Of a stretch of 64,000 nucleotides of DNA, positions 6,473 to 45,162 are shown one piece after another. The notes beneath the pieces were generated by a model, which was given only the letters and a program-made list of their open reading frames with translations, was not told the origin of the DNA and made no database searches. This DNA comes from a virus. The translations under genes were made by a program, and so were the position numbers. The stretch lies in the IMG/VR virus record IMGVR_UViG_3300021197_001203, positions 1-64,000 of that record. One strand, written 5' to 3'. Each line of letters opens with the position of its first letter. Position 1 is the first letter of the stretch.

Positions 6473-6688
6473 TCAACCTCTATTTGTGATATAATCAGGC
6501 GGAGTTATATCCTCAATCGTCAAATCTATCGAATTATCAAATCCTCTAGCCGCTGCATTTTTTCTTTGACGGCACCTGTTAGCTGGCATTCGGGCATTTT
6601 TACCACACCTGTCGCCGGGCATAGCACCGCAAACTCCGCATGGTGCGGCTTTAACCAACTCCCAAGCTTTGTCAAAATCTTCTGTCAT
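6473..6688 (-). CDS. Tagged small Zn-finger protein
   Basis: N-terminal FDKAWELVK tag followed by CGVCGAMPGDRC. Confidence 0.65.
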   Translation of the reverse strand: MTEDFDKAWELVKAAPCGVCGAMPGDRCGKNARMPANRCRQRKNAAARGFDNSIDLTIEDITPPDYITNRG

Positions 6689-6996
6689 TGTTCATACTTC
6701 CCTAAATTATAATCCATAGCCCCGCCACATCCTGCACAGGCTGGTGTCCAACAAAAGTGAAGAAGGCCGCATTCAAGGCAACGAGTACCCGCACCTATAT
6801 TTTGAATATCGTATTTTTGTCGCCCTCTTGTTTTTACTTTAATGTCATGGCTATGAGCCGCCATGTTGTCTTTACTGAAGATCGACTCATCAGTTTTAGT
6901 CATGCCAGTAGTAAGTTCTTCAAGACGTACTTCACGCCTTTTACCTATTTCTAGTAATTCTTCAAGATTTATTTCACCAAGTTCTAAGCTACCCAC
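6685..6996 (-). CDS. Zn-ribbon protein
   Basis: C-terminal CLECG...CAGCG. Confidence 0.65.
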   Translation of the reverse strand: MGSLELGEINLEELLEIGKRREVRLEELTTGMTKTDESIFSKDNMAAHSHDIKVKTRGRQKYDIQNIGAGTRCLECGLLHFCWTPACAGCGGAMDYNLGKYEQ

Positions 6997-7011
6997 AGGG
7001 ATTCACCCCGT

Positions 7012-7326
7012 TTATGCCCTTGTCCCGGTGACTGTGATGAAAAGAGTTTGACCTGATAAGTTAGTGGAGTCTGCCACTGCATCGAGAGAAGCACCATCCG
7101 CCCCTGCTTCGTAAGCAAGAAGTTTAGCTGCTGATCTATCAAATGACCAAACATATCCTCCGGGGTCTGAATCAACAAGAACCGTTTCTAATACAGGAAC
7201 GTATTGTGTCAAGTTCAATGCTTCGCCAGCCGCAAGCCAGCTACTATCAGGGACTACTTTTAGTGCAACAGTAAGTCTGTTGCCTGTAATATTCGTTCTT
7301 CCAAGTTGCGTCACGGTTAATGCCAT
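7012..7326 (-). CDS. Putative small virion protein
   Basis: Start moved to the ATG at 7326 (MALTVTQLG), which lies 31 nt from the start of a TATA box (leaderless). Beta-rich, in the head module. Confidence 0.7.
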   Translation of the reverse strand: MALTVTQLGRTNITGNRLTVALKVVPDSSWLAAGEALNLTQYVPVLETVLVDSDPGGYVWSFDRSAAKLLAYEAGADGASLDAVADSTNLSGQTLFITVTGTRA

Positions 7327-7349
7327 ATAGAACCCTTCATGATACAATC

Positions 7350-7357
7350 ATATATAA
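7350..7357 (-). promoter_or_regulatory. Archaeal TATA box (TTATATAT) with upstream A-run, leaderless transcript
   Basis: Box starts 31 nt upstream of the ATG at 7326. Similar spacing recurs at several other genes. Confidence 0.6.
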
Positions 7358-7373
7358 GAACTGTTTTTTTTTA

Positions 7374-7898
7374 TCATTCGTGAATAACTATTAATCTGAA
7401 ACTTCCACCAGCGAAAGTACCGTTAGATGTAGCTATTGTAAATGTGACTTTACCACATACAAGCCCACTCCACGGTGCGGCTTCATCAATTACTACTCCA
7501 CCTGTGGTCGAACTTGCTGGGGCTGAAACAGTGAAATGTAATCCACTTGTATTCCCGCCATCTGCATTCAAGTTGCCGCCCTCGGATGTTTGGAAATGCA
7601 AAGCGGTGTTGCTAGCAGTCCTTACATCTAAAGCTGCGAGCGTGTCACAATACGGATAACCTGTTGATGATCCAGTAGGGCTTAAATCCATTGAAATAAC
7701 TAATGAACCAGTGGTTGCCGCATTTGCATTGCAGGATATATCTTTAGGGTCAAGTATTACTCTTGTAATCTTACCATTCAAGTCAAGTGAACCCGATACG
7801 CTGTCAGTGCCGTCTCCTTCAATTGTCAAAACCCGTCTATTAACACGGGTGCGACTAGCGTATCTGCCTACGCCATCATTAACGTCTTCTGAACTCAC
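7374..7898 (-). CDS. Putative virion structural protein
   Basis: 174-aa Gly/Ser/Thr-rich ORF in the capsid operon. Confidence 0.7.
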   Translation of the reverse strand: MSSEDVNDGVGRYASRTRVNRRVLTIEGDGTDSVSGSLDLNGKITRVILDPKDISCNANAATTGSLVISMDLSPTGSSTGYPYCDTLAALDVRTASNTALHFQTSEGGNLNADGGNTSGLHFTVSAPASSTTGGVVIDEAAPWSGLVCGKVTFTIATSNGTFAGGSFRLIVIHE

Positions 7899-8365
7899 TC
7901 AGATGCCCCCGCTAAATGTTGGCGGGCTTTATCTGTAAGTTTGGCTTTAGTGTCGGTATTTACGGTTGTTATTCCTCTTTCCGTACACCAAGTCATCATT
8001 TGTGATCTTGTTAAGCCCTGAGAGAATCCATTCGACATTAATTCTTCGTCTGATATTGTTATTGGGGCTGGTGCCTCAACAACTGGTGCCTCAACAACTG
8101 GTTCAGGTGCGACTGGAGTTTCAACCACAGGGGCTGCTACTTCTTCGATCACCTTAGCCATTTCTTTAGCTTGGTCTTTACCAGTGGTGTCGATTACCTC
8201 CCACATCCTACCGCCGTTTTCTATTGCGGGTAATATTTGCACACGAATCCAATCGTCAGGAATGTCGTCCCTTTCCATGCCTCTAGCAAAACCTAGTTGC
8301 TTACCACTTGGTAAAGTGATTTCACAATAAGGTCTTGCACCGATATACTTCAATGTAAGAGCCAT
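7895..8365 (-). CDS. Hypothetical protein with Pro/Ala/Glu linker and C-terminal SAP/HeH-like helix pair
   Basis: PVVEAPVVEAP linker and LTRSQMMTWCTERGI..TKAKL. GAGGTGA-type RBS (AGGTGAG). Confidence 0.65.
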   Translation of the reverse strand: MALTLKYIGARPYCEITLPSGKQLGFARGMERDDIPDDWIRVQILPAIENGGRMWEVIDTTGKDQAKEMAKVIEEVAAPVVETPVAPEPVVEAPVVEAPAPITISDEELMSNGFSQGLTRSQMMTWCTERGITTVNTDTKAKLTDKARQHLAGASE

Positions 8366-8377
8366 TTAGCTCTCACC

Positions 8378-8770: not shown

Positions 8771-8792
8771 TAATTATTCTTCTTTAGCCACC

Positions 8793-9959
8793 TTAAGCAG
8801 ATAAATCTCTCACCTTACCGTGTGCGCCATAGAAGAGTTGCCAAAGGTTGCCCATAGTGTGGAACATTCCCATTTGTCCTAGTCTGTTGATTCCGAATGG
8901 ATCGCCAGTCTCTATACCGGATTCGTGGTATAATGTTGGTTTTGCAGTGCAAAAGTAAAGGTAGTCTGTATCTAAGTAATACATACGACTTAATCCACCG
9001 CTTTCTGAATGAACGTCTTTTGATGGAATTAGTGGGACTCCGTTGTATGTTGCTACAATGAAACCAGCTTCCATGCCCGGTACACCCTTAACGCCATTAA
9101 CGCCGGGTACAACTCTCTTCATCTCAGTAAATCTTTGCTGAGGTTGTAATAGTTGCTGAATCTTTTCTAATGTATCGTAGCCAGTAAGGATAACTTTAGG
9201 CTGTCCTCCACGTTCCCATACACTTCTGAACATTCCGTCCATGATGTTTAGAGACAATGCTCTCTCAGTACCTGAAGCACCTGCATCCACGTTTGCGTCA
9301 TACCATTGTGCAACGCTTCCTGCATTACGGTCAATGTTATATTGGTCGTGATCACCAGCAGCACTTACGTCACCAAAGCTAGTTGTTTCCACGAATGATG
9401 ATGATAGACAACGGTCAATTGACTCAAAGTCGTTTAGTGTTGTATCACGGAAATCAATGTCTTTTAGAAGCATTTTATTGATTGCCTCAGCGTGGTGCTT
9501 TGCCATTTCCATCTTCATGACAGCTCTAGCATCTCCAAGACCATCGTCTTTGTCAGCTAAGAACATTGCAGTTTCAGACAGATCGAATGTATGTGCGACT
9601 GTTCTTGGTTTGTCAGCTACGTGAGCAAAACTTGGTTTGCTTGTTTCAGGCAGTGTACCGTTCTCAGGAAGACCGCCACCAACATCGAATGAAGGTTTGT
9701 CAGTGACTACTCTCCAACCGGATTTTTCCCACGGTTTCTTAGGCAGTATAGAGAACGCATTGAACTCTTGGTTCAGCTGCGACCATACTTTACGACCAAA
9801 TATAGCTTGGTAAGTACCTGTGGTACTGCTCATTAGAGGCGAGTCAGCCTTCAGTAAGTCTGTACCGGAGTATGCCCATGCGTTAGCACCTGCACCAGCC
9901 CCGTAGTATAGACGTTCCATGTCTTCTATTGTTCTCAAATATCCTCTTGATCCACTCAT
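8793..9959 (-). CDS. Major capsid protein (HK97 fold)
   Basis: 388 aa, directly after the protease/scaffold. Motifs GGGLPENGTLPET, KHHAEAINKMLL, FESIDR and YNGVPLIPSKD are typical of archaeal tailed-virus MCPs. Confidence 0.88.
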   Translation of the reverse strand: MSGSRGYLRTIEDMERLYYGAGAGANAWAYSGTDLLKADSPLMSSTTGTYQAIFGRKVWSQLNQEFNAFSILPKKPWEKSGWRVVTDKPSFDVGGGLPENGTLPETSKPSFAHVADKPRTVAHTFDLSETAMFLADKDDGLGDARAVMKMEMAKHHAEAINKMLLKDIDFRDTTLNDFESIDRCLSSSFVETTSFGDVSAAGDHDQYNIDRNAGSVAQWYDANVDAGASGTERALSLNIMDGMFRSVWERGGQPKVILTGYDTLEKIQQLLQPQQRFTEMKRVVPGVNGVKGVPGMEAGFIVATYNGVPLIPSKDVHSESGGLSRMYYLDTDYLYFCTAKPTLYHESGIETGDPFGINRLGQMGMFHTMGNLWQLFYGAHGKVRDLSA

Positions 9960-9998: not shown

Positions 9999-11315
9999 TT
10001 ATTCTCCACGTATTGCTCTCCTTGCTAGGTCTTCAACAGCTCTCCAGCCGTCAATGTCACTACCCATTGCGTTAAACTCTTCATGTGTAGGGATTCGGAT
10101 GTCTGATGTTGTAGGTACTGCAACTGCTGATTTTTGTATATCTGCATTTACAGTTCTTAGTGATGCAATTTCTTGCTGTAATGCTGCGATCTGCCCGCTA
10201 TAATCAGATGCTTTTTGCATCTCCATAGCTCTAGCTGATTCAGCTTGATAACGCTCTTCCCATTGGGATTTTACGACTGACTTTAGATTTTCTTCATCAC
10301 GCATACCAGCGTATGCTCTATAACCACGCTCTAATCCTTCAGCGGTGACTTCATTTGATTCTTTGATTACGGACCTGTTGCCCTTTGGTGCCTCCATCTT
10401 CATCTTAGCTGGTGCCTTGATTACGTTTTTATTACCGCTAGCTGCTGGTAATGAAGGGTATGTAGGTTCAGAAGCATCTTCTCCGCTTCCAATCTCATCT
10501 CCCTGCCCTCGGTGTGAATAGCCCTGACCATCGCCCGGCAAATATGCCTTAGCTAATCCGAAGTGACCTCTTAATTTATCAAGATCAATTCCTTGTTCGT
10601 GAGCAAACTTCTCTAATGTGTCGATGTAAGCTACTGCTGTATCGTTAGATTTGTTCATCACTGGGGCTTCTGCTGGTTCTTCTTCGTCAATATGTTTTAG
10701 CACTCTTGCTAATCCATCTCGTATTTCACTTAGGGCTTCTGCATTATCTGTCATTTTTTCCACTTCCGGGTTTTCCATTTTTAATATAGTATAACGAGCT
10801 TCGGGGTTTATTCCTTTTTTACACAAAGTCACTTCATGCAATTCCAGCTCGGTAATCTCACGGTGGCTTCCATGCTCAGGCGTATGTTTACTAACCCTGA
10901 ACAAAGCTTGTCCACCAATAGAGAAGGCACGTAATTCATTATCTCTAATTTGCTTTTGTACCTCTCTAGCTTTCTGTATATCGCTGCGTATCTTACAAAC
11001 AACGAATAGGCCATGATCGTCAACTTCTGATTTCCATAATCGGCCATTTGAATCGGTGTGGTCTGCTACAACTTCTCCTACTTGTATTCCACTGTGCGCT
11101 AATTGCACATTTCTGAAAGCTTTGTTTTCCATGAAACTTCCAAATGCTTTCTTCAAAGCATCAGCAGGTATTCTATCTCCCTGCTTGTCCACCATGTCCA
11201 CACTAGCATATCCAGCTATGTATAAGTCATTACCAGCTTGAGACTTTAAGATAAAGTCTGACCCTACTGCACTCCACTTAAGGGAGGGTTGTATGGCTAA
11301 TGCGGCGGATGACAT
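9999..11315 (-). CDS. Prohead protease (HK97/S78-type) fused to scaffold domain
   Basis: IAGYASVDMVDKQGDRI, H (LAHSG), FSIGG (catalytic Ser) and LHEVTLC...NPEA, then an acidic coiled-coil C-terminus. Start at ATG 11315, TATA-like TTCATATA at 11340-11347. Confidence 0.88.
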   Translation of the reverse strand: MSSAALAIQPSLKWSAVGSDFILKSQAGNDLYIAGYASVDMVDKQGDRIPADALKKAFGSFMENKAFRNVQLAHSGIQVGEVVADHTDSNGRLWKSEVDDHGLFVVCKIRSDIQKAREVQKQIRDNELRAFSIGGQALFRVSKHTPEHGSHREITELELHEVTLCKKGINPEARYTILKMENPEVEKMTDNAEALSEIRDGLARVLKHIDEEEPAEAPVMNKSNDTAVAYIDTLEKFAHEQGIDLDKLRGHFGLAKAYLPGDGQGYSHRGQGDEIGSGEDASEPTYPSLPAASGNKNVIKAPAKMKMEAPKGNRSVIKESNEVTAEGLERGYRAYAGMRDEENLKSVVKSQWEERYQAESARAMEMQKASDYSGQIAALQQEIASLRTVNADIQKSAVAVPTTSDIRIPTHEEFNAMGSDIDGWRAVEDLARRAIRGE

Positions 11316-11378
11316 TAACAACTAATTATTTTACAATGGTATATGAATGAGATTGTGTTAAGGCTGACAACCCTAACA

Positions 11379-14792: not shown

Positions 14793-14801
14793 ATACTCAC
14801 C

Positions 14802-16921: not shown

Positions 16922-18715
16922 TCAAGACTTGTCCTCTTCTTTGCCTCTTTGACCATCAATATTTAATCTTTTTAATTTTGCATTGGCTCTTTTTAATGCA
17001 GGGGGGTCATCAGTATTTTTATTGCCTTTAGATGATATTGGTGAGCCTTCGTTATGAATTACTCTATCACCTGCATTGCCCTTTACCGAAGACCGTGTTT
17101 GGGATATTCCCCCTTCTCTAGCTGGGCGTATATCAGTACCTCTTGTTGTGACAGCAGCAGCAGCATCAGGGACACTGCCGTGAATAGGGTCATTAACATC
17201 TCTTTTGAATAATCCAAAAGCACCCATATCCTGCTTTTGCACTCCAGCACCCCCGCCAGCAGCTTGTTGTTCGGCCATCGCAGCCTCCTGTGCTGCCACT
17301 TCTTCGGGGTCCGGTTCCGCATAATCGAAAGTCAAATATGCGTCATCAACTGTGTCCCTCAATTTAGCATCAAATCCTGCTTGCTTCATTTGCATCATAT
17401 TGCGGATAGCCATCTCATCTCGGCGTAATTGCATTATCTCATCCTCTTCTTCGTGAGGCGTTAATGTTATTTCCCATTCAGTTATACCGAATGCTTCTAA
17501 CAATGCAGGGAATAAAAGACGGTTGTATATTGATTGTGAAAAGGACACTGATCGGTTGCTGACAACAATTTGCATACCTTCGTTATTTAATCCGCCTCCG
17601 GTCACATCATTCATAAATACATTAGATACACCATAAAAGGCGGATATACGTTGTCTGATGTCATCTTTAATTGGTATGTATTGTAGCTCTTCTAATGTGT
17701 CCATCATACGAACATACTCTATTCCTCCCCTACCTGATTCCGTCTCAACACCTATGGTTGGCACATAGTTAGGGTCACGTTCAAGATGTTCTTGGATATT
17801 CCTTGCTGTTCTCTCAACAGTTTCCATGTTTGATGATTTAATGACCATAATACCTCTTGGCATTCTTCTCTTTTGATATGCGGAATAGACATAGTTATCC
17901 ATAGCAATCAATGTATTGACTTGTCTCCACATAGTAGCAACTGGACTACGCCCATACAATTTTGAAGGGGACCATTTACTAAGATGAATAATTTCACCTT
18001 CAGTATAACATTGCCCGTTGCCCACTCCAGCTAAGTTCATGTAATGTATTGGCACTACATTCATACCAGTAGTTGGACATTTATCATTAGGGTCCGAAGT
18101 GCGGAACGACCTGTCAACAAGGCTGGTGTATTGATTACCCCCTCTTACCCCTCTTTTATCGGACAAAATACGCATAAATATAGGGTCTGCTCTCGATATT
18201 TCCTTAATCCTAAAAAACGTGGCCGCCTTTGTTTTAGGGTCAATAAAATATTCCTTTGTCACTACGAGATAGGCATCATCGACAATATTCAAATCCATTT
18301 CTAATTCTCTTAAAACATCAATAAACGTCTGCCCCATTTCATTCGTACTCCTGAATACCATGTCTGCATATTCTATTTGTGAACGGTCAGCTTTTCTCAT
18401 TTCGCCCCCCGTTTCAGGGTCGCTTTCATATTGTTGTCCGAACTCTTGATCAGTGTCTATACTTTTTACAACAAACTTTGGTTTCCATGCCCAGCCTTTA
18501 CGAAATGTTTCAACACATAAATGATTCAATATTGACCTTAAAACCATGCACTCGTAAGATGCTGCATACAAAGCAGGGATAGTAATACCCTGAAGTAAGG
18601 CAGGTTCTTGAATACCTGATGTAAATAAGGGCATTGAGGGTTTAGGACTAGAATGCCTCTCCATGTCCATTCCCACTGCTGAGAATAATCGTTCCATTCT
18701 TTTTTTATCGACCAT
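16922..18715 (-). CDS. Portal protein
   Basis: DLNIVDDAYL, EIIHL..WSP..LYGRSP, PRGIMVI and RISAFYGVS are HK97-like portal motifs. Located after terminase. Confidence 0.9.
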   Translation of the reverse strand: MVDKKRMERLFSAVGMDMERHSSPKPSMPLFTSGIQEPALLQGITIPALYAASYECMVLRSILNHLCVETFRKGWAWKPKFVVKSIDTDQEFGQQYESDPETGGEMRKADRSQIEYADMVFRSTNEMGQTFIDVLRELEMDLNIVDDAYLVVTKEYFIDPKTKAATFFRIKEISRADPIFMRILSDKRGVRGGNQYTSLVDRSFRTSDPNDKCPTTGMNVVPIHYMNLAGVGNGQCYTEGEIIHLSKWSPSKLYGRSPVATMWRQVNTLIAMDNYVYSAYQKRRMPRGIMVIKSSNMETVERTARNIQEHLERDPNYVPTIGVETESGRGGIEYVRMMDTLEELQYIPIKDDIRQRISAFYGVSNVFMNDVTGGGLNNEGMQIVVSNRSVSFSQSIYNRLLFPALLEAFGITEWEITLTPHEEEDEIMQLRRDEMAIRNMMQMKQAGFDAKLRDTVDDAYLTFDYAEPDPEEVAAQEAAMAEQQAAGGGAGVQKQDMGAFGLFKRDVNDPIHGSVPDAAAAVTTRGTDIRPAREGGISQTRSSVKGNAGDRVIHNEGSPISSKGNKNTDDPPALKRANAKLKRLNIDGQRGKEEDKS

Positions 18716-32751: not shown

Positions 32752-35067
32752 TTAAGCGATTTTTCTGCCGCTTTGCGATTCTCGGATAGAGTTTTGTTGT
32801 ATTACTCGGAATATGTCATCTAATGCTTGACCATGTTCCATGTAAGATGTGTTTTCGTTTTCTCTTCTGAAACACATCCGGCATCCCATTTCACCAGTCA
32901 TTGGGTCAATATTCATGTCGCATTTTGTATCTGCACCGGGGAGTGATGCCGGACAAACCTGCTGCCGACTATTACCGCCAAAACCTTTCGGTGTTATCGT
33001 GCTTGTTGTAATTCCGGGGGATTCTAAAATCGAAGCGATGTCACCAACCCTGTCATTTCGTCCTTCTTTGCCCTTATACCACTCAGGTTCCTTGTCAATA
33101 GAAATCCTCATTGTTGCATTATCGGGCAAATGAGACTCTTGTGTCCCCCCTCTAGCCTCCATAGCCTCTCTTATGTATTGAGCTTGGCGTGAAGAAATCC
33201 AATGTTCTAAGTCTCGTAATTCTCTTGGGGTTTGTTGTTGTAGGAGATCGAAATAAGCTGAAACTTCACCGGGGCCTCTAAAATCTCCTGAAGCCTTTCC
33301 TCTAACATAACCCTTACCTGCAAGGTGTTTAGGCGCATTTCTTTTATTATTTGCGGTTTTCATCGCTTCAGAATACATTTCATTTTGCATGGCTGAAAGA
33401 TATTTAGGCATATCATTAAGAGAATTGTATAGATTACGGTGATATTTTCTTTGTGGGCCATTAAACGCCATTTTATTTTGAGCAGCATAACATATTTTAC
33501 AGGCCCCAGTTTTCATCGTACAAGCATGAACGGGCATATCCCCCAATGATATTCCGGGCATTTTACCGGGATTACCAAAGCCAGCCATTAACTTCGATTG
33601 TTTGTCGCTGCCCTCCCATGTTGGTATTTCCATCCCTTCTAAGGGATAATCCACTAGATTAGGGTTATCTTTGGGACCAGTGAGCTGTTGAACCTTTTCG
33701 GGGTATAGATTTATGAAATCAATTATATCTCTATTACCCCCCCCATACATCTGACCTTCAGGGCGTGGTGGGCCGTAATTTCCTTTTTTGTCTTTATTCC
33801 ACGGATATGGCACCGCATCCGGCAACTTACCACCGAACAGCTCTTCCCAAAAGAACATTTCACCGGGTTGCCCCCAGTGTTCTGAATCAAATACTGCTTT
33901 AACCAGCCCCCACGCATCTTCAAAGGTATTGTCTTCTGATAGATTAATGATCTGACCGAGCATTGCATTTTCTAATACGTCTCGGCCTGTATTGGTAAAA
34001 TCGCTTTCTCTAGCTAGAATACCATGAGTTGGGGTCACAAGACCCCGTTTCAAACCGAGTTTATCAGGATTGCTGCCTATATTCATAGGCACAGGAACTC
34101 CCTGATGCTTGAAACCTGATGAATCTCTATATGACGGCATTCTCCCTAACTCGTCTAATATTCTCATTATAGGGTCTATTGAGCCTGTCACTTTACTACT
34201 GTAAGGGACACCATCAGTGTGAACATCTGTATCTAAAGAACCAATACGATCACGCCAGTCATAATCATCAACATCTTCTCTATATTCCCTGTTATCAACA
34301 GAATATTTACCTTCTTTTGGGGTCAAATTGGGGTTTTTTGGTGTTGAGAAATCATAACCCACCATTATTAGAGGTCTGCCCGTTTCTTTATCCCAGCCCT
34401 GCATCGCCCCTTTCTTATCCCTGAAAAGGTCAACATCGTCCCCCCAATCTTGTAGCAACCGGGATTGGTCTAAACCTTCACCCAAAATATCAGATAATTC
34501 CCCGCGGCCTAGATTGCCGTGAACCCACATATGTTCATTTTTCTTACCATCGGCTTTTCTTTGACCATCAATTCTATGAGACCTAGACTGTGCGCCTCTC
34601 GATACATTAAATCTAGGGTCGTCTAAAGGGGTAGCATTAGAAGCCGCTAATGTTGTAAAACGCCCTTGTTTTTGAGGGTCTTCATCAAACCTTCTTTGTA
34701 ATGAGTGCATACCGCCTAAAGCTGGAAAATATTCACCACCAATTAAAGTAGGTGACGGAAGCGTATTACGTCCCGTAAATTGATTATTCCTAAACAAACG
34801 AGTGTTGTAGTCCCCAAAACGGTCTTTAGCAAACCGTGGTATAGCTAATCTGTCTCTCAATAATCGGCTCATACTCCTATGCGACCTTTTATCATCTAAT
34901 AAAGGATAAATAACTTCTCTAAGTGGATTTATTGTTGATTCTATACGGTCCACTGGGGTACGCTGCTGCCCCATTAACGCCCTAGTATTGAACCCATCAA
35001 TTGTAGCCCCGTCAAAGTCTAATGCAGTTTTCCAGCTCTTTTCAAAGAGACTGTCGTCACTGCCCAT
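32752..35067 (-). CDS. Doubly tagged protein with C-terminal GP88-like (Cys-rich, radical-SAM-like) domain
   Basis: N-terminal FEKSW tag and internal FEDAWGLVK tag. GP88-like motifs KMPG..C......C..CYA, VR...SGDF, W..SR, N..MRIS and CP...C...C..CF. Confidence 0.7.
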   Translation of the reverse strand: MGSDDSLFEKSWKTALDFDGATIDGFNTRALMGQQRTPVDRIESTINPLREVIYPLLDDKRSHRSMSRLLRDRLAIPRFAKDRFGDYNTRLFRNNQFTGRNTLPSPTLIGGEYFPALGGMHSLQRRFDEDPQKQGRFTTLAASNATPLDDPRFNVSRGAQSRSHRIDGQRKADGKKNEHMWVHGNLGRGELSDILGEGLDQSRLLQDWGDDVDLFRDKKGAMQGWDKETGRPLIMVGYDFSTPKNPNLTPKEGKYSVDNREYREDVDDYDWRDRIGSLDTDVHTDGVPYSSKVTGSIDPIMRILDELGRMPSYRDSSGFKHQGVPVPMNIGSNPDKLGLKRGLVTPTHGILARESDFTNTGRDVLENAMLGQIINLSEDNTFEDAWGLVKAVFDSEHWGQPGEMFFWEELFGGKLPDAVPYPWNKDKKGNYGPPRPEGQMYGGGNRDIIDFINLYPEKVQQLTGPKDNPNLVDYPLEGMEIPTWEGSDKQSKLMAGFGNPGKMPGISLGDMPVHACTMKTGACKICYAAQNKMAFNGPQRKYHRNLYNSLNDMPKYLSAMQNEMYSEAMKTANNKRNAPKHLAGKGYVRGKASGDFRGPGEVSAYFDLLQQQTPRELRDLEHWISSRQAQYIREAMEARGGTQESHLPDNATMRISIDKEPEWYKGKEGRNDRVGDIASILESPGITTSTITPKGFGGNSRQQVCPASLPGADTKCDMNIDPMTGEMGCRMCFRRENENTSYMEHGQALDDIFRVIQQNSIRESQSGRKIA

Positions 35068-35398
35068 AGTGATACTAGGGCATACCATTCATCAAAAGTC
35101 TGCCGGACATTTATAGACGATTGCAGAACATAATATTCTTTGCAGGGGGGGCTATTCATTTGTCTCGTCCCATTTTTTTGACACACCCCTATTGGTAGGC
35201 TGCAACCTAAACCAACCCCCCCCTGCACCTTCTAGTGCAGTTTGTTGATTTCATCAGCAATTTTTCCCAAAATATCAAAAACCTTCAAGGGAACGTACAA
35301 CACAAACAAGAAGGTGCCCACTATGAATAATAATAATAATTCTTTCAACATGGATTTAGAAGACATAAACAAAGCGCATACAATAGCATTTTTATTCT

Positions 35399-36322: not shown

Positions 36323-36682
36323 TCAGGGTGTGCGTCCAGCTCTTCTAAAGCGATCAATGAGTCCTTTTGAACCAAGAGCTTGGGATGTGCTATCAGGAAT
36401 TGATGGTCCCTGCATTGTATCAGTACGTGCATATTCAGAAGCTGGTTCATTGTCAAACATATCCTTGAGCCTTTCATACTCATCTTCAATACCATCATTA
36501 TCTGTTTCTAATATGTTAGCCATAACCTTTCGATTATGACTTTCACCGTCAGTTGTTGATTTCATATCTGCAAATCTTTTAGGAACAGGTCTGCCGCCTT
36601 CTTTGAGTGAATCCAGCTTACTATTAAACTTCTCACCGAAGTCAGCCTTAACCACATTCCATGCTTGATCAAATGTTGTCAT
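36323..36682 (-). CDS. Tagged hypothetical protein
   Basis: Starts MTTFDQAWNVVK. Confidence 0.7.
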   Translation of the reverse strand: MTTFDQAWNVVKADFGEKFNSKLDSLKEGGRPVPKRFADMKSTTDGESHNRKVMANILETDNDGIEDEYERLKDMFDNEPASEYARTDTMQGPSIPDSTSQALGSKGLIDRFRRAGRTP

Positions 36683-36683: not shown

Positions 36684-37004
36684 CTATGACCTACCGTAGT
36701 ATTCTTCTTCTGAACCGGGGTGCATTTCGTTTAATGCGGCTTGTGCCCCAACAATCATATCTTCAACCTCTGACATTTCACCGCAGCATTGTTCTGCTAA
36801 TGTAGTTGCTTGGCTAAGTAGTCTGTGTAATTCCTGCACTTTTTTGCCCATGTCTTCCATAGGAGAGCCATCGCTGAGTTGTCCGTTTATTGAACCACTA
36901 AACTCATCTAATTCATCTATATCAATACCATACTGCTCAAGTGTTGCTGGGTCATACCCACCTGACTCTTTTGTTATGTTCCAAGCTTTATCAAATGAGG
37001 ACAT
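36684..37004 (-). CDS. Tagged acidic hypothetical protein
   Basis: Starts MSSFDKAWNITK. GGAGG RBS. Confidence 0.7.
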   Translation of the reverse strand: MSSFDKAWNITKESGGYDPATLEQYGIDIDELDEFSGSINGQLSDGSPMEDMGKKVQELHRLLSQATTLAEQCCGEMSEVEDMIVGAQAALNEMHPGSEEEYYGRS

Positions 37005-37112: not shown

Positions 37113-37502
37113 CTATATTTTCCGTGAAACAATGCCTCTTGATTTGATTTTTTTGGGTTTTGACCTTGATACCTCAGTTAAGGGATAACCATACCCCGTG
37201 GTTTTATCTTCTTTAGATTTAGAAGGAACCCGGTGGTTCTTTCTGTCCCTATCAAAATCTTGTTTGCTTTTGTATTTCTTAGGTTTACCCACCTTTGCGT
37301 GTCCTACTAACTCAGCTGGACCTTTACCAGTCCTTATTATGCCGACTTTTTGGCCGACATAGGAGTCAAGTGTGGGTTTTTTACGTGTTTCAACCTTCTT
37401 TTTACCTGATAATATCATATCAGTGTAAGGGACATCTTTGTCATTTATGTTAATTCCCATCTCTTTGACTAGCTGCCAAGCAGTTTCAAACTCGTAGCTC
37501 AT
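37113..37502 (-). CDS. Tagged ASCH-domain-like protein
   Basis: Starts MSYEFETAWQLVK, then PYTDMILSGKKKVETR (ASCH GxKxxExR motif). Leaderless start with TTATTTAT at 37525-37532. Confidence 0.7.
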   Translation of the reverse strand: MSYEFETAWQLVKEMGININDKDVPYTDMILSGKKKVETRKKPTLDSYVGQKVGIIRTGKGPAELVGHAKVGKPKKYKSKQDFDRDRKNHRVPSKSKEDKTTGYGYPLTEVSRSKPKKIKSRGIVSRKI

Positions 37503-37546: not shown

Positions 37547-38410
37547 TTATATTCTTTTGGAAGGATAACGCCGAATCGTTTTATCTGCCATATTAGGGGT
37601 TGAGGGGGTCGTGAAATCGCCGAGGAATGAGCCGTCTGCATAGTAATCGAGCATTCTCATGCCTTCCGTTGAAGGATAGTTGGGTGCATGGTAATTACCG
37701 GGGCCTATGTCATTTGTGTTATCAGACCCAAAATAATATTCCAGCTCGTCCAAAAGCTGGGCATTGACCCCTCTTTTTCCTCCAAACTCAAAGCTAGTCT
37801 TTGGGTTGCTCTTGGCTTCCTCATACGCATCCCTCGCAAGCTGGTCCCACCAATTTTCAAGCTTGTCATCAAAGGCACTCGCATTTGCTTGTCTTCTTGT
37901 AAGAGGCCCTTGTAATATGACTCTTTCACGATTCGGCCACTTTCCCACGTATGCAGTTCGGTCCCATTCATGTCCAGTCCCTGCCCCTTGTGTGTATTGT
38001 GAATCTTGTCCCTTTAACCAGCTCATATCGACTCTAGGCATTTTCATAGCATTCACAGGAAGGCCATCCACAGTCATCTGTTCGGCTGGAAGAAGGTATT
38101 TCTCAGCAACGTCCGGCAGGACGTTCTTCATCCTGTCATATGTGAAAGCCTCCCAAAAATCGTCTTTTTTACCCGGAGATTCATCATTAAGCTGTTCTAA
38201 TAATCGCCTCCCTCCAGCATCCAAATTAGGTACTTTAGCCACAGAGCCGGGGTCGTCCCGAATGTCGAAGACCCTTCTTTGGCCTCCTTGATCAAATGCG
38301 TCTCCTAAGCCCAACTTTTCCGTAGCTATCCGAGAAAGCTCGGTCTCTCTTTCTAATGGGGTCGTATCGTCAAACTTAACTATCTCCCAAGCTTGGTCAA
38401 ATGCGGTCAT
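37547..38410 (-). CDS. Tagged protein-kinase-like fold protein
   Basis: Starts MTAFDQAWEIVK. QGGQRRVF...VAKVP (Gly loop/VAIK-like), DIGPGN (catalytic-loop-like) and MLDY. Confidence 0.55.
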   Translation of the reverse strand: MTAFDQAWEIVKFDDTTPLERETELSRIATEKLGLGDAFDQGGQRRVFDIRDDPGSVAKVPNLDAGGRRLLEQLNDESPGKKDDFWEAFTYDRMKNVLPDVAEKYLLPAEQMTVDGLPVNAMKMPRVDMSWLKGQDSQYTQGAGTGHEWDRTAYVGKWPNRERVILQGPLTRRQANASAFDDKLENWWDQLARDAYEEAKSNPKTSFEFGGKRGVNAQLLDELEYYFGSDNTNDIGPGNYHAPNYPSTEGMRMLDYYADGSFLGDFTTPSTPNMADKTIRRYPSKRI

Positions 38411-38712
38411 TGATGGTCCTCCATCCTATTGTATCGCATCATTACCTCTTCGGGGGTAAGTCCTGAATCAGTCTCTGTATTTTCCCAATCCGTGTCACAC
38501 ACCCCACAACCACCCATTTTCGCACAGCAATCATTACAGATGTAATTTCCCGGTGTCCCACAGGCGTGTTCAGCCATACTATTCATACCGCACAACGGAC
38601 AAGGGGTATTTTCATTGTAAACGTCATCATCCTTCGACCTATCACGATTAGGGTCGATAGATATGGAAAAGTCCTCTTTTACAAGATTCCAAGCTCGATC
38701 AAAGGCGGTCAT
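38407..38712 (-). CDS. Tagged Cys-rich Zn-binding protein
   Basis: Starts MTAFDRAWNLVK. CPLC..C..CNDCC..CGVC. Confidence 0.7.
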   Translation of the reverse strand: MTAFDRAWNLVKEDFSISIDPNRDRSKDDDVYNENTPCPLCGMNSMAEHACGTPGNYICNDCCAKMGGCGVCDTDWENTETDSGLTPEEVMMRYNRMEDHQ

Positions 38713-39101
38713 TCATAATCCTCCATTCTATCTCGGTATGCCTCATAGTCAATACCATATGTTCTTTTAGGGCCAACCGTACTACCGTTTTCAATTGCCT
38801 GATTAAGATCGAATGGCTTGCCATCTCCAAAGAAACCTTCAATCTCCATTGAATCAGACATTCGTTTATCAACCCACGGATGAATACATTTGCTACATAA
38901 TTTTGGAATACCCTCAACTATGTTGTTGATGTCGCTAAAACATCGCTCACATTCACTCGGCCAGTTTACACTTGGGTCGGGGTCAAGCGGTTCTTGAAGC
39001 AATAATTGGTTCTCATTCGCAATTCTTTGTATTTCTTCATCGGAAAACAACCGATGATATACGGACTTCACAATATCCCATGCTCGGTCAAATGCGGTCA
39101 T
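38709..39101 (-). CDS. Tagged Zn-finger protein
   Basis: Starts MTAFDRAWDIVK. CERC..CSKC. Confidence 0.7.
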   Translation of the reverse strand: MTAFDRAWDIVKSVYHRLFSDEEIQRIANENQLLLQEPLDPDPSVNWPSECERCFSDINNIVEGIPKLCSKCIHPWVDKRMSDSMEIEGFFGDGKPFDLNQAIENGSTVGPKRTYGIDYEAYRDRMEDYE

Positions 39102-39721
39102 TGTTCCGCCCTCCTTTGCATTTCTTCAAGGCTCAATTCGGGCGAATGCCCTGTTTCATCGGGATCATCATCAAACCAAGCCAATCTTCTTTTTGGTCTA
39201 TCCACAGGCAGGTTTGCTCTTGCCAATGAATCAAGGTGTCCTCTTTCATAAGTCGGCCAATTTGTAGGTTCATTCACTTCAAAATCACTTTGATGCACCA
39301 ATTCTAAGAACTCCGGTGGTATGGTGACGTTTGAGAATAGGTGCGGTGAACCCCTGCCGTCATATCCTTCACGCATAGGGAATGATGGATCAATTCGTAT
39401 CATTGCAGGTGTAGCCACATCGTCTTGAATGTAGGGAACGCTAAGGTTTGGGTCACGCAGAAGATGAAGCCCTTGCTCATGCGCTCTTTTGCGTTGTGGC
39501 ATATTTGCTGCCATCATACCGTAAAGATTGGCAATGTTGGGATATGATGATGCGAACACCTTTGGCCCAGATCCGTATGTGTCTTTTCCTCCGATGAACT
39601 TGTTGCTATCCTCATACGTTCCGGGCTTCAATCCTTCACGCATTATGTTTTCAACACGATCTGATGTTGTTCCGTGATATGGCATCTTCACGATAGCCCA
39701 TGCGGTATCAAAGGCGGTCAT
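39098..39721 (-). CDS. Tagged ADP-ribosyltransferase-like protein
   Basis: Starts MTAFDTAWAIVK, then YHGT...I.REGL.P, G..VFAS and a terminal IPPE.L, typical of the H-type ART/Tpt1-like fold. Confidence 0.7.
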   Translation of the reverse strand: MTAFDTAWAIVKMPYHGTTSDRVENIMREGLKPGTYEDSNKFIGGKDTYGSGPKVFASSYPNIANLYGMMAANMPQRKRAHEQGLHLLRDPNLSVPYIQDDVATPAMIRIDPSFPMREGYDGRGSPHLFSNVTIPPEFLELVHQSDFEVNEPTNWPTYERGHLDSLARANLPVDRPKRRLAWFDDDPDETGHSPELSLEEMQRRAEQ

Positions 39722-40008
39722 TCCATGCCCTCCAATTCATCGTTCAGATTCAATTCAACCATAGCATCAGGATTTTCCCACCATTCAGTCAATTGTTTGG
39801 CAAACTCATTCGCTATCGAAGGCGACATCGTTTTTATGAAATTGAAAAATTGTTGCATATCTCCTAATCTCTTTGCATACATATCTGATTCATTGATGAT
39901 AGAAAGCATGGAAGCATTATCCGCGTTTCGTTTTCTGAGGAAGTTAATCTGCATCTCATAGTGTGGTGAGTTTTTCACCAAATCCCATGCTCGGTCAAAT
40001 GCGGTCAT
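39718..40008 (-). CDS. Tagged hypothetical protein
   Basis: Starts MTAFDRAWDLVK. Confidence 0.7.
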   Translation of the reverse strand: MTAFDRAWDLVKNSPHYEMQINFLRKRNADNASMLSIINESDMYAKRLGDMQQFFNFIKTMSPSIANEFAKQLTEWWENPDAMVELNLNDELEGME

Positions 40009-40097
40009 TTCGTCACCACTATCCTACAACATGAACCATCGATCACCCTAAGATTACCCAAAGCATTCCCACAATTAGGGCAATAAGATTTACTCAT
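40005..40097 (-). CDS. Small Zn-ribbon peptide (30 aa, MSKSYCPNCGNALGNLRVIDGSCCRIVVTK)
   Basis: Exactly fills the gap with ATGA overlaps at both ends. Confidence 0.5.
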   Translation of the reverse strand: MSKSYCPNCGNALGNLRVIDGSCCRIVVTK

Positions 40098-41551: not shown

Positions 41552-41553
41552 GA

Positions 41554-42444
41554 TCACCACTGTGGTTTCCCATAGGGTTTTACCCATTTTTCACAAGTCG
41601 TACAATATTTGTCATTCCATTCCCCTCTTGCTAGATTTAGATTGCCATCGCAATATGGACAAGTTTTTTGCTGCCTTTTGGAAATTATGGAAAATGATTT
41701 ACGAAGTTTTCTTTTATTATCCATCATTTGATGGTATCTAGCCAAAGCGGGATGCCACTGCGCCCTTGCTAAAGGATTCGGGTTCGGCATCAAACGTCTA
41801 TCATCCACAGCTGCATTTATGCCCATTCTTGCTAAATGCTGGTCCTGTTCCAATTTCCTGTCTCGTTTTCCTGAAGAATCCGTTATAGGGTCAATCTCAC
41901 CCAAAGTCGCTGCATATTCCTCTTGGTAATCATCTAACCTCTCTTCTTGAGATATTCCCGAAGAAGATAATGCCTGATGTATTGCCTCATGAGAAGCTAT
42001 CTCATTCATCCGGCTACCCCAACTAATGTCCTCATCCTCAGTCAAATCTCGGTCTAAGTCATCAATATTTTCCATTCCTAATATCTGAGCTAATACCTTT
42101 TCAGGATGGTTTCTAGCTGAATAAGGGCCTCTCCACTTGAGGGGGGCATAATTATCGCCACGCTCATTTGTCGCAATTCCGGTTTCTTTTAACCGTCTAA
42201 GCGGGCCAGCACTTGTTGTTTGACCTAAAGCACCCCCATGAGGTGCCTCTTCGCCCCAATCATCTAAGTAATCAGAAGTCCCTATTCTTGATTCAAGTTC
42301 TTCTTCTGAAGGGTCTCTTGTTGACGTTTCCCAATTGCTAGTCGTCAACGTGCTGGGTGCAGGAAAGCCAAATCTTGTCGGTGTTCTAGGATATGAAATC
42401 CTTGCCTTTACCAACTCCCAAGAGCTATCAAAGGCATCCGCCAT
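41554..42444 (-). CDS. Tagged zincin-type metallopeptidase-like protein
   Basis: Starts MADAFDSSWELVK. HEAIH with downstream EEYAA, and a C-terminal CPYC..CTTC. Confidence 0.65.
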   Translation of the reverse strand: MADAFDSSWELVKARISYPRTPTRFGFPAPSTLTTSNWETSTRDPSEEELESRIGTSDYLDDWGEEAPHGGALGQTTSAGPLRRLKETGIATNERGDNYAPLKWRGPYSARNHPEKVLAQILGMENIDDLDRDLTEDEDISWGSRMNEIASHEAIHQALSSSGISQEERLDDYQEEYAATLGEIDPITDSSGKRDRKLEQDQHLARMGINAAVDDRRLMPNPNPLARAQWHPALARYHQMMDNKRKLRKSFSIISKRQQKTCPYCDGNLNLARGEWNDKYCTTCEKWVKPYGKPQW

Positions 42445-42450
42445 GTATGT

Positions 42451-43191: not shown

Positions 43192-43221
43192 AAATCGAAT
43201 AAAAAGTGTTAATTATTTAAC

Positions 43222-43404
43222 TTAACGGCTTTTTTTGTCGCTTTGAACTTGAACTCGCACATCTTGTGCGGTTCCCTTGATAGATTGCATAGCCACACGA
43301 ACTCTTGTTCCAGCTGCGCCATTACCTCTATCGTGCTTCTCAGCATCTGCGAGGGCGTTTTCTAGTTTTGTCATCATTCCTTTGATCATATCTGCAACAG
43401 ACAT
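43222..43404 (-). CDS. Histone H1-like Hc1-family nucleoid protein
   Basis: DAEK..RGN.AAGTRVR..MQ..K..AQ..R matches the Hc1 core. Leaderless, with TTATAACT at 43426-43433. Confidence 0.7.
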   Translation of the reverse strand: MSVADMIKGMMTKLENALADAEKHDRGNGAAGTRVRVAMQSIKGTAQDVRVQVQSDKKSR

Positions 43405-43479
43405 GACACGGGTGCGAATCCTGTTAGTTATAACAATTGTTGTGAAATAAGGGCATATACCCCCTATTTAGAGGTATAA

Positions 43480-44097
43480 TTAGCAATTCCATCTATCAAG
43501 AGCTGCGCCCTTTGGTGTTTTCTTGCCTTCTTTGCTGGTTGGACCCTTAACCCCACCCATTCTAGCGCAGAATGATTTACGCCTCTTTGCCTTCTTACTG
43601 TCAGGGTTGAGGGTTGATGGCTTCTCGGTCACTGGTGGTTTCAGGTTAGCACCTTCTTCACGCTTTGCTTTAGCTCGACCCTTAGCATTCAATCCACCTT
43701 CTTTGCTGTGTTTGTTAGGATTGTAGCCATGAAACGGTTTGTCATCCTTTTTCTCAAGAATATTATTGATCGAAACACAAATACCACAATTACAGGTTTT
43801 AGTCAGCTTGTCCCAGTTCTTCTTGTCAGGGTAGTCCTTGTCTCCGGGTTTAGCTGCCTTCTCGCCTCTTTTCTTTTTGGCGTGAACATTATCCCAAAGA
43901 CCACGTTTGCCTTTATCCATGTAAGTCATACTCTTTTCGATTTCATCCTCCTGATTTGCTGAAACACAAGTATAACAACTGTGTTTACCCAAATCATCCA
44001 TACCGTGAGCAGGGTCGCCACAATAATGACAATCAGGGCCTTCTCCCTCATACGGCCATTCTTTCAAGACACCCCAAGCCTTGTCGAATGCGGTCAT
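43480..44097 (-). CDS. Tagged multi-module basic protein
   Basis: Starts MTAFDKAWGVLK, then a Zn finger, GLWDNVHAKKKRGEK and the common phage basic module GGLNAKGR..NLKPPV..RRKSFCARM..W.C. Confidence 0.7.
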   Translation of the reverse strand: MTAFDKAWGVLKEWPYEGEGPDCHYCGDPAHGMDDLGKHSCYTCVSANQEDEIEKSMTYMDKGKRGLWDNVHAKKKRGEKAAKPGDKDYPDKKNWDKLTKTCNCGICVSINNILEKKDDKPFHGYNPNKHSKEGGLNAKGRAKAKREEGANLKPPVTEKPSTLNPDSKKAKRRKSFCARMGGVKGPTSKEGKKTPKGAALDRWNC

Positions 44098-44468
44098 TCC
44101 ATGTCCTCCGGCATACCATTATTGAAAAATCCCTGTAATATGTTCTGAAGGTAGGTATCAGCAGCAGCATCGTCATCTTGGTATTCATTATTCAATTCTG
44201 AGATACCCGTTTCTTGTTCTGATAATGAAGGCCCGTGATCTGCACAATAATATCCTGTGTCGCTACCAAAAAGCCCTTCCCATGAGGCTATATCGCCACA
44301 ACCGGGATGCTCACACATGGGATAATCCTCGTCATCATAATCATTACTGTCAATTTTGAACCATGATGGTGTTTTTTGATTCCACGGCAGGGGACCACCC
44401 TCATCATCGTGAGTCCTCCCTTCGATTGTGTTTTTCACCAAATCCCATGCTTCATCAAATGCGGTCAT
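44094..44468 (-). CDS. Tagged acidic Zn-finger protein
   Basis: Start reassigned to MTAFDEAWDLVK at 44468. CEHPGC...YCADH. Confidence 0.7.
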   Translation of the reverse strand: MTAFDEAWDLVKNTIEGRTHDDEGGPLPWNQKTPSWFKIDSNDYDDEDYPMCEHPGCGDIASWEGLFGSDTGYYCADHGPSLSEQETGISELNNEYQDDDAAADTYLQNILQGFFNNGMPEDME

Positions 44469-44469
44469 C

Positions 44470-44757
44470 TTACTCAATCCTTCCTCGATCCTTGTAGCAC
44501 CCTTTACAAAAGGCATTACCTTGCTTTGATTCGTAGCTTATGTTTTCATCGTTAAACTCTTTACCGCACAGCTGGCATTCATTACCTGCATAGCCGCCCG
44601 GACCCATCTTGACAATGTTCCAAGCTCGGTCAAAAGATTTCTTTACGTCTTTCGCAGCATAACAAGGACACTTAGGCTCAGTCTTAGAGCATTTCATGAT
44701 GCCCTGCTTCATACAAGCACAAGGGTTAGACTTGGTGGCCCCGCAACAGCAGCCCAC
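44470..44757 (-). CDS. Cys-rich protein with internal tag
   Basis: Metallothionein-like CCCG..CAC..C..CPC N-half, internal SFDRAWNIVK, then CQLC..CKGC. Confidence 0.65.
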   Translation of the reverse strand: MGCCCGATKSNPCACMKQGIMKCSKTEPKCPCYAAKDVKKSFDRAWNIVKMGPGGYAGNECQLCGKEFNDENISYESKQGNAFCKGCYKDRGRIE

Positions 44758-45162
44758 TTACATCAAGCCTCGTAGCATATCCATGAGCTTAATTTTGTCA
44801 AGAGTCCCATAAATGTCTTCACCTTCGTAATCACCCATGAAATCAGGGGCTAGTGGTTCGTATGGACCGCCTTCATAATGTCGGTCGAATAATTCAGACA
44901 TATCAGGACGGTCTTTCGTATATTGAGCGTAAGGACCCGCTTCGGTCCCATCATATCCTATATCTCGATAAACTTCAGGGTCTGACATCAACATTTCAAT
45001 CATAGGAACCATACTAGCTGGTACTTCCATAGTCACCATCCCTCCTTCTATGTCTTGGGCTATTGATTGTTGATCTGCAAAAACATCTTCATCTGTTCTG
45101 CTTAACTCTTTATTAACGACATTCCAGCTTTGCTCAAAAACAAAATCTTCGGCATCCGACAT
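44758..45162 (-). CDS. Tagged acidic protein, first gene of the minus-strand arm
   Basis: Start reassigned to MSDAEDFVFEQSWNVVNK at 45162. TATA-like CTATTAAC at 45184-45191. Confidence 0.65.
   Translation of the reverse strand: MSDAEDFVFEQSWNVVNKELSRTDEDVFADQQSIAQDIEGGMVTMEVPASMVPMIEMLMSDPEVYRDIGYDGTEAGPYAQYTKDRPDMSELFDRHYEGGPYEPLAPDFMGDYEGEDIYGTLDKIKLMDMLRGLM

Follow-up and report, generated by a model that had tools for sequence, protein, structure and literature searches.

We analysed a window of 64,000 bases (positions 1–64,000) of the IMG/VR virus record IMGVR_UViG_3300021197_001203, in which a 12-residue peptide with the consensus M-T-A-F-D-x-A-W-x-L-V-K (hereafter the tag) recurs, mostly at the start, in otherwise unrelated proteins and is present on about one in six proteins of the genome. 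The complete record (CheckV) comprises 108,315 bases, and gene calling on the whole record separated it into two units of transcription direction. The minus-strand unit runs from 45868 to 1 and, if the record ends are joined, from 108188 to 76474; the plus-strand unit spans 46019–76508. A 1537-amino acid (aa) open reading frame (ORF) at 3–4613 runs off the left end at contig base 1, so that the record is probably a circle that has been permuted or cut, with the minus unit continuing into 108188–76474. The minus strand of the window carries a Caudoviricetes head module (protease, capsid protein, portal, and terminase), and the plus-strand unit, the replication arm, encodes a UvrD-like helicase and a thermosome subunit (56384–58018, Pfam E 2.7e-136).

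Layout and chaperonin are those described for magroviruses of Marine Group II archaea (PMC5434244). An HK97-type head module, a chaperonin gene within a replication arm of archaeal type, and a connection to Poseidoniales mark the genome, as judged from gene content, as a magrovirus (Magrovirales, thermosome-bearing lineage; group A or a neighbour). Direct evidence for a Poseidoniales host comes from a 106-kb contig in the single-cell genome AG-422-I20 (L059, contig C2 of G010), whose capsid protein is 88% identical to that of the window. This contig has 11 tag matches, the other ~1.1 Mb of the assembly has none, and it looks like a close relative caught within its host cell.

A six-frame regular expression (regex) scan of the window with the strict pattern F-[DE]-x-[AS]-W-x-[LIVM]-x-K returned 16 matches, 16 of 16 on the minus strand (Table 1). 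The expectation from residue frequencies is 0.009 (300 residue shuffles: mean 0.007, maximum 1), which rules out an artefact of chance or composition. Fourteen copies sit 2–6 residues after a start codon that has a G-rich Shine-Dalgarno block ahead of it, and two (33924 and 44634) are internal. Two copies lie beyond the strict set: VFEQSWNVV at 45138, scored at 7.2 bits by a profile hidden Markov model (HMM) built from tags of related viruses and run on the genome, and the degenerate LFEKSWKTAL after the Met at 35067, seen by eye. The original prediction had counted 18 copies in the window, listed the ORF starts of the tagged proteins, placed two copies internally, and seen none in the plus-strand early arm; our scans agree on each count (16 strict and two looser copies by six-frame scan and HMM, none in the plus-strand arm). 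Outside the window, further copies were found at 78249 (PFDEAWEMTK), in a 594-aa protein with C5-methyltransferase-like motifs (76474–78258), and at 78872 (AFQHGWALVK), in a 213-aa HExxH protein (78255–78896). The 17 tagged proteins of the window fall into 17 different BLAST families, so that at this level of comparison the sequences following the tag, termed payloads here, are unrelated, as had been proposed.

Table 1. Tagged genes and reference features of the window. Positions in the fourth column are those of the F codon of the tag.
Coordinates	Strand	Product	Tag (F codon)	Basis
6473..6688	-	71-aa Cys-rich zinc-finger-like protein within head-tail gene block	MTEDFDKAWELVK (6676)	Scan; Pfam Phage_zn_bind_8 E 7e-4, below cut-off
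8793..9959	-	Major capsid protein, SU10/HK97 type		Pfam SU10_MCP 2.1e-9
9999..11321	-	Prohead protease (S78) fused to scaffold-like C-terminal part		Pfam Peptidase_S78 4.2e-10; 68 homologues aligned
16922..18715	-	Portal protein		Pfam
20008..21378	-	Large terminase (TerL), marker of head-packaging block with tagged genes embedded		Pfam
21416..23158	-	580-aa acidic low-complexity protein directly upstream of TerL	MPSDDIFDQAWDLAK (23140)	Scan
23145..24365	-	406-aa low-complexity protein	MSFEEAWNVVK (24359)	Scan
32752..35088	-	778-aa two-module protein	Degenerate N-terminal LFEKSWKTAL; internal FEDAWGLVK (33924)	Scan, Pfam
36323..36682	-	119-aa protein	MTTFDQAWNVVKAD (36673)	Scan
36684..37004	-	106-aa acidic protein	MSSFDKAWNITK (36995)	Scan
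37113..37502	-	129-aa basic protein, weak ASCH match (E 0.026)	MSYEFETAWQLVK (37490)	Scan, Pfam
37547..38410	-	287-aa protein, kinase-like as lead only	MTAFDQAWEIVK (38401)	Scan
38407..38712	-	101-aa Cys-rich protein	MTAFDRAWNLVKED (38703)	Scan
38709..39101	-	130-aa protein	MTAFDRAWDIVK (39092)	Scan
39098..39721	-	207-aa protein, predicted ADP-ribosyltransferase (ART) fold, largest payload family (35 members)	MTAFDTAWAIVK-MPYHGTT (39712)	Scan, AlphaFold2 (AF2), Foldseek
39718..40008	-	96-aa protein	MTAFDRAWDLVK (39999)	Scan
41554..42444	-	296-aa protein, HEAIH (HExxH) motif, C-terminal zinc ribbon	MADAFDSSWELVK (42432)	Scan
43480..44097	-	205-aa protein, Cys cluster and DUF6321 (3.9e-17)	MTAFDKAWGVLK (44088)	Scan, Pfam
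44094..44468	-	124-aa acidic protein	MTAFDEAWDLVK (44459)	Scan
44470..44757	-	95-aa Cys-rich protein, tag between two Cys-rich halves	Internal SFDRAWNIVK, aa 41–50 (44634)	Scan
44758..45162	-	134-aa acidic protein	Loose MSDAEDFVFEQSWNVVNK (45138)	Scan, HMM 7.2 bits
46019..64000, continuing to 76508 in the genome	+	Replication arm, tag-free, negative control		Tag scans, gene calling

Tagged genes share strand and unit with the head genes. In this genome they make up 18 of 66 genes of the structural-strand unit vs 0 of 35 in the replication arm (hypergeometric p ~2e-4), and the same restriction applies in six further complete genomes save for a few weak regex matches. That the tagged genes are late genes, as the original prediction held, is an assumption. 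Of the seven complete genomes, drawn from two lineages, six have a tagged gene immediately upstream of TerL; the payloads there are not alignable, and searches of these proteins against Pfam and PHROGs gave no family match, small terminase or otherwise. At the position of the tagged zinc-finger-like gene in the head-tail block, only two of 36 related loci have a tagged gene, and a conserved 'core' gene of this kind is not supported. The main tag cluster (36.3–45.2 kb) forms the promoter-proximal end of the minus unit and adjoins a divergent intergenic region. This region (45247–46018, 772 bp), between the cluster and the replication arm, is full of iteron-like repeats, with many CCATTSRCCAATG-like words in both orientations (45370–45670) and long A/T runs, and is a candidate replication origin or regulatory hub. 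The first replication-arm gene (46019–49735, 1238 aa) encodes repeated D-(T)-T-V-V-Q-E-(S)-R linkers (aa ~338–348, 439–449, and 780–790), a motif unlike the tag.

The tag is also nearly confined to the virus. Among 185,579 prokaryotic species genomes the tag pattern matched once, on a viral contig of a Poseidoniales single cell, and a looser pattern gave four single matches in ~340 Mb of 200 other Poseidoniales genomes vs 17 in the present 108-kb virus. A host-derived motif is ruled out by this near-absence, and the original prediction, which had named equal abundance in host proteins as evidence against itself, holds in this respect.

A degenerate DNA pattern for M-T-A-F-D-x-A-W-x-Φ-V-K recovered 58 stretches on ~45 IMG/VR contigs, at least 18 of which encode a protease 62–76% identical to the present one. 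In 551 kb of related IMG/VR loci we counted 297 strict tags, 211 of them with a Met exactly three residues upstream, and 312 unique payloads from 140 related loci fell into at least 129 BLAST families. Likeness ends after the Lys of the tag, which together with the 129 payload families rules out a paralogous family with a common N-terminal domain. Most seemingly untagged homologues carry variant tags (AFDAGWAILK, AFDTAFALLK, and AFNEAWSICK), and a few are truly untagged, such as the D12 methyltransferase at 40094–41587, which is untagged here and tagged in L025. Within the 35-member family that includes 39098–39721, mean column identity is 15%, and the invariant columns are F4, A7, W8, and K12 of the tag plus H16 and G30.

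A sister lineage (capsid protein 63%, protease 38%, and thermosome 37% identical to those of the present genome) has the tag variant P-[FIL]-D-x-A-W-x-[IL]-L-K. Its genomes (G001, G002, and G004; loci L144–L159, e.g. L144:17928–18815) have further copies in frame, inside proteins or at the C-terminus, with (G/S)-E-P-M ahead of the tag, as in the internal '(G/S)EPM-DLAWRLLK'. At the DNA level '(G/S)EPM' reads as a Shine-Dalgarno sequence followed by ATG, which suggests that these copies are tagged cassettes fused to upstream genes through loss of a stop codon. In the 778-aa protein of the window the internal FEDAWGLVK (aa 389–397, nt 33898–33924) precedes a GP88 domain (aa 506–684); this internal tag is kept in the homologues of G005 and G006, and other members of the family are stand-alone N-tagged proteins. 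GP88 domains occur in two genes of the window, as the C-terminal module of the 778-aa protein and in an untagged plus-strand gene inside the minus arm (35399–36274, Pfam 3.5e-21). Also kept in the sister lineage (39–42% identity), where a tagged gene follows it, is the 242-aa product of 31106–31834, which weakly resembles Arf/Ras small GTPases (Pfam Arf E 8.4e-4, below the cut-off).

In a set of 230 independent N-terminal tags, the information content is 1.5–2.4 bits at first and second codon positions and 0.3–1.2 bits at third positions, a three-base periodicity, and conserved residues are encoded by several synonymous codons. This combination argues for selection on the peptide, and the tag is, on its codon pattern, selected at the protein level. 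The conserved residues are close to fixed: when the rest of the tag is kept constant, the final residue is K rather than R in a ratio of 230:1, W stands against F at 230:3, and the initial F is invariant. Such near-absolute preferences point to stereospecific recognition and not to a generic amphipathic or membrane-binding helix.

That the peptide could be incidental, and the conserved 36 bases (Shine-Dalgarno, ATG, and tag) act as a recombination cassette boundary or as a translational or regulatory RNA site, was considered because codon use in the tag differs strongly from that of the payloads (Thr ACC 119 vs 37 expected, Asp GAC 168 vs 72, and Ala GCT 168 vs 82). A G-rich block at -12 to -8 is also conserved, cassette turnover is very high, and the fused cassettes of the sister lineage retain in-frame 'GEPM'. 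Against this, third codon positions are far less informative than first and second ones, Leu, Val, and Lys appear in several codons, variant tags preserve residue classes and not bases, and conserved internal tags such as that at 33924 have no start signal. A DNA-level repeat as the primary signal is ruled out by the three-base periodicity together with the freely varying x positions, and we regard a nucleic-acid function of the 36 bases as very improbable; recombination at the shared tag DNA may well be a by-product. The codon bias includes a near-absence of GCC for the Ala before Trp (1 vs 61 expected; tags at 36647–36673 and 38677–38703, for example), where GCC-TGG would make CCTGG, and could reflect codon optimisation, CCTGG avoidance, or shared descent of the tag DNA.

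Payloads are soluble, mostly small, and short-lived in evolution. Transmembrane-like segments were found in none of 125 payload families vs four to nine of the ~75 untagged proteins per genome. The median length is ~150 aa and the median isoelectric point (pI) 4.8, with a basic methyltransferase-like protein and some zinc-ribbon proteins as non-acidic exceptions. Homologues in three genomes of the same lineage are lacking for 67% of tagged genes, as against 31% of the untagged genes of the minus arm and 40% of the genes of the replication arm, and no tagged gene has a homologue in the sister lineage. Tagged genes are, by these measures, the fastest-turning-over gene class of the virus.

Pfam and PHROGs searches with the payloads mostly gave no matches. 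Of the functions proposed for individual payloads by the original prediction, GP88 was confirmed in the 778-aa protein (Pfam 1.2e-9) and the HExxH motif is visible in the sequence. The ART-like label was upheld by a fold search: the 207-aa protein was modelled by AF2 with moderate confidence (predicted local distance difference test (pLDDT) 74.9), and its top Foldseek neighbours were Tpt1/KptA, pertussis toxin S1, Arr, tankyrase, and DarT, all of them weak matches (E 2e-3 to 5e-2). The ADP-ribosyltransferase fold of the 39098..39721 product is thus supported by the predicted structure. In the same model the tag forms a short helix (residues 3–11) right before the first strand, in keeping with the helix that had been proposed for it. 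Weaker labels remained weak, namely ASCH, the zinc fingers, and the kinase-like assignment; for the last, the 287-aa protein has no Pfam match, and Atlas feature matches to clusters with Kinase-PolyVal and Phage_T7_kinase (score 0.92) serve as a lead only. Related viruses carry tagged N6-methyltransferases.

The tag ends in an almost invariant Lys, and sites of a like hydrophobic-hydrophobic-Lys type recur in the capsid protein and the protease-scaffold protein. HK97-type proteases are known to process capsid and scaffold proteins. Across the 68 aligned homologues, the protease-scaffold protein has two invariant G-N-x-x-V-I-K sites (~aa 296–302 and 315–321) that lie 20 residues apart and are followed by variable residues after each Lys, as well as a conserved [IL]-Q-K-S (aa ~395–400) before a C-terminal Trp helix; these are candidate self-processing sites. 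The capsid protein has L35-L36-K37 followed by A-D, and this LLK, invariant in both lineages, ends as the tag consensus does. Residues after the tag Lys are biased as well (family-weighted; Ala 25% and Glu 18% at K+1, Asp 26% at K+2), with Ala and Asp enriched three- to four-fold and Glu about two-fold. There are four occurrences of the pattern [LIVM][LIVMAT]K[AE][DP] in the proteome of 35,016 aa: in two tags, at capsid LLKAD (aa 35), and at protease-scaffold VIKAP (aa 300); about two non-tag matches are expected by chance, and both of those observed fall in the capsid and protease-scaffold proteins. HK97 cleaves its own capsid protein at K103/S104, i.e. after Lys (PMC10275583). From these sites we infer a cleavage specificity for Lys at P1 common to tags, capsid protein, and scaffold. 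Sequence searches of the PDB with the capsid protein and the protease gave no matches, and the AF2 model of the capsid protein (pLDDT 33.6) was too poor to place LLK37 relative to the N-arm.

A cleavage function alone, with the tag serving as a pro-peptide cut by the viral S78 protease or as a degron for a host protease that activates, inactivates, or times proteins and does not target them to the head, would account for the invariant Lys, for the similar conserved Lys sites in known substrates of the S78 family, and for internal tags at module junctions. There would be no need, however, to conserve F, D, A, and W seven to eight residues ahead of a site that is only cleaved, and cutting the C-terminal copy in G004 would shed just four residues. 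HK97-family prohead proteases, moreover, act inside the procapsid, where a substrate would normally be found anyway. We consider this explanation improbable.

Taken together, the tag is, on its pattern of conservation, a modular, virus-specific, protein-level label with a conserved final Lys on unrelated soluble proteins, confined to the head/tail-gene strand, which partly supports the original prediction. That this label loads proteins into the capsid and is clipped by the protease, like the capsid targeting sequence (CTS) of phage T4, we regard as the best-supported reading, with close to an even chance of being correct. The tag would be a short helix of amphipathic character whose F, A/W, and L/V lie on one face; a conserved viral partner would recognise it stereospecifically, and the virus would place it on quickly changing soluble accessory proteins (ART-fold, HExxH zincin-like, DNA methyltransferase, zinc-ribbon, and acidic proteins). 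During head assembly the tag would dock this cargo to the procapsid interior, either at the capsid protein or at the scaffold portion of the protease-scaffold protein. The tag would then be cut after its invariant Lys by the S78 protease, which would likewise cut the capsid protein after L-L-K37 and the scaffold part after the two V-I-K, and the freed cargo would remain in the head and enter the next Poseidoniales cell with the DNA. Docking partner, cleavage, packaging, and delivery are all steps that we infer. The analogy to T4 is apt because of the modular tag, the conserved Lys sites in capsid and scaffold, and payloads (ART fold, zincin, and DNA methyltransferase) of kinds whose packaging by phages is known or predicted.

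Several observations weigh against capsid loading. The main cluster, from 45.2 to 36.3 kb, is promoter-proximal, lies beside the divergent region, and is closed off by the convergent plus-strand GP88 gene at 35399–36274, and could therefore be an early operon. The tag of G004 in the sister lineage is at the extreme C-terminus, where cleavage would remove little. Most payloads are acidic, the protein encoded upstream of TerL could be a small terminase and not a packaged protein, and all complete tag-bearing genomes also encode a chaperonin, an alternative partner. The test with [LIVM][LIVMAT]K[AE][DP] is only partly independent because the capsid site was seen before the pattern was chosen, and in the alignment the scaffold region of the sister lineage has no V-I-K. 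Nor does the tag resemble the C-terminal tail of the protease-scaffold protein, which is conserved as ...D-[LI]-[DE]-G-W-[RK]-A-[TV]-E-[DE]-L-A-R-R-A-L-R-G-E and received no score from the tag HMM among the matches listed. The tail of the sister lineage (...M-E-W-x-E-V-H-x-L-A...) is also unlike its own tag, and what they have in common is the general type of a Trp-containing amphipathic helix; the dissimilarity of tail and tag means that there is no sequence pointer to a shared docking site.

Some of these observations suit a cytoplasmic docking motif that brings effectors to a hub other than the capsid (RNA polymerase, proteasome/PAN, replication clamp, or a viral factor) and involves no packaging. 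Early genes often lie next to a divergent control region such as the one adjoining the main cluster, the payloads resemble host-takeover enzymes, docking motifs allow the internal and C-terminal positions seen in the sister lineage, and strict residue specificity suits any protein-protein interface. Yet the replication arm is free of tags, and tagged genes lie within the head block and, in six of the seven genomes, directly upstream of TerL. A docking motif also leaves unexplained the invariant Lys and the hydrophobic-hydrophobic-Lys ending of the capsid and scaffold proteins, and no host protein carries the motif, so that mimicry of a host motif does not apply. We judge docking at such a hub unlikely, though it is the main alternative to capsid loading.

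Recruitment of newly made accessory proteins to the viral thermosome for folding would give the tag yet another partner. Every near-complete tag-bearing genome examined has a chaperonin (the window with its thermosome gene, five of five genomes compared, and the sister lineage), a co-occurrence that is uninformative because the chaperonin is universal in the lineage. To our knowledge, group II chaperonins do not use linear N-terminal tags. The chaperonin gene itself is located in the replication arm, whose proteins have no tag, and many payloads would hardly require assistance with folding, being short, disordered, or zinc-ribbon proteins. A chaperonin client tag is accordingly an explanation to which we give hardly any credence.

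Capsid loading has precedents in several known systems. The CTS of T4 internal proteins was reportedly described by Mullaney and Black in 1996. This short N-terminal peptide is the sole element common to a diverse and polymorphic set of proteins (IPI–III and Alt); it brings them to the scaffolding core, and the prohead protease cuts it off at a consensus also used in the capsid protein, and its cargo includes an ADP-ribosyltransferase and anti-restriction proteins (PMC3012670). Likewise, the magrovirus tag is the only shared element of its proteins, the payloads, an ART-fold family among them, turn over quickly, and the ending of the tag resembles conserved capsid and scaffold sites. There is no sequence similarity between the two, however, and the T4 site L/I-x-E is cut by gp21, a protease of another family, whereas here a Lys and an S78 (HK97-type) protease would be involved. 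The magrovirus system further differs in its archaeal host, in its scale, with 17–19 genes of each genome tagged and payloads of more than 129 families, and in its internal and C-terminal copies; packaging is proven for T4 and putative for the magrovirus proteins.

In phage P1, an N-terminal signal takes DarB, a large anti-restriction protein of methyltransferase/helicase type, into the head, and the Dar proteins have no N-terminal consensus and are loaded stepwise via DarA/Hdf (PMC9024508). The tagged C5-methyltransferase-like protein (76474–78258) and the tagged N6-methyltransferases of relatives are reminiscent of this system; unlike the Dar proteins, the tagged magrovirus proteins all carry one strict consensus. 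The HK97 maturation protease gp4 is said to be encapsidated through its own C-terminal tail, a result attributed to Duda, Oh, and Hendrix (2013). Both systems have a protease of the same family (Peptidase_S78), a terminal peptide as an address for the capsid interior, and cleavage after Lys, the last two being putative for the tag. The HK97 address, in contrast, is C-terminal and on the protease itself, and the magrovirus tag is unlike the tail of its own protease; we know of no family of unrelated tagged cargo in HK97.

Encapsulin targeting peptides are usually C-terminal, rich in Gly, Ser, and Leu, and uncleaved, and their shell is without DNA. As with the tag, a short conserved terminal peptide sits on unrelated cargo, and that of encapsulins binds the luminal face of an HK97-fold shell; the magrovirus tag differs in being N-terminal, aromatic, and helical and does not have the encapsulin consensus. 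Finally, the polyvalent proteins of phages and conjugative elements combine conflict domains that are predicted to be delivered with the DNA, and their genes lie beside portal and terminase genes (PMC5512222). ART, zincin-like HExxH peptidase, DNA methyltransferase, kinase, and zinc-ribbon domains occur in both repertoires, the kinase of the tagged set being a lead only. Polyvalent proteins, however, join two to fifteen domains in one polypeptide, whereas magroviruses have mostly separate small tagged genes and few fusions (the 778-aa protein and the sister-lineage fusions).

The main magrovirus papers searched do not mention a shared motif, an N-terminal tag, or a targeting signal, and full-text literature searches for capsid targeting in archaeal tailed viruses found nothing, which agrees with the original prediction that the tag had not been described for these viruses. 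T4 and P1 already exemplify the principle, and the novelty lies in sequence, protease family, host domain, and scale. We tentatively propose, at somewhat less than even confidence, that magroviruses load well over 100 exchangeable effector families into an HK97-type head via an AFDxAWxΦΦK code (with variants in sister lineages), from which they would be freed by Lys-specific prohead proteolysis. With the same reserve, such loading may be the archaeal-virus counterpart of the T4 CTS, working like an encapsulin cargo-loading peptide.

Magroviruses rank with the most abundant archaeal viruses in surface ocean waters. If the tag does load the capsid, the proteins that these globally abundant, uncultured viruses probably inject could be singled out with a simple regex or HMM. 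Hundreds of small enzymes (ART-fold, zincin, methyltransferase, and kinase-like) would then be aimed at Poseidoniales, whose defences and physiology are otherwise inaccessible, and would provide, for a host that has not been cultured, a ready-made list of proteins that may be injected to counter defences or take over the cell. Encapsidation of proteins by means of an address peptide, known from T4 and P1, would extend to archaeal viruses whose protease is of the HK97 type, with a bearing on the proposed relationship between viruses and encapsulins, and a 12-residue tag would become available for bringing foreign proteins into HK97-type shells. Should the partner be something other than the capsid, a strict, portable motif carried by one gene in six would still point to a hub of virus-host interaction.

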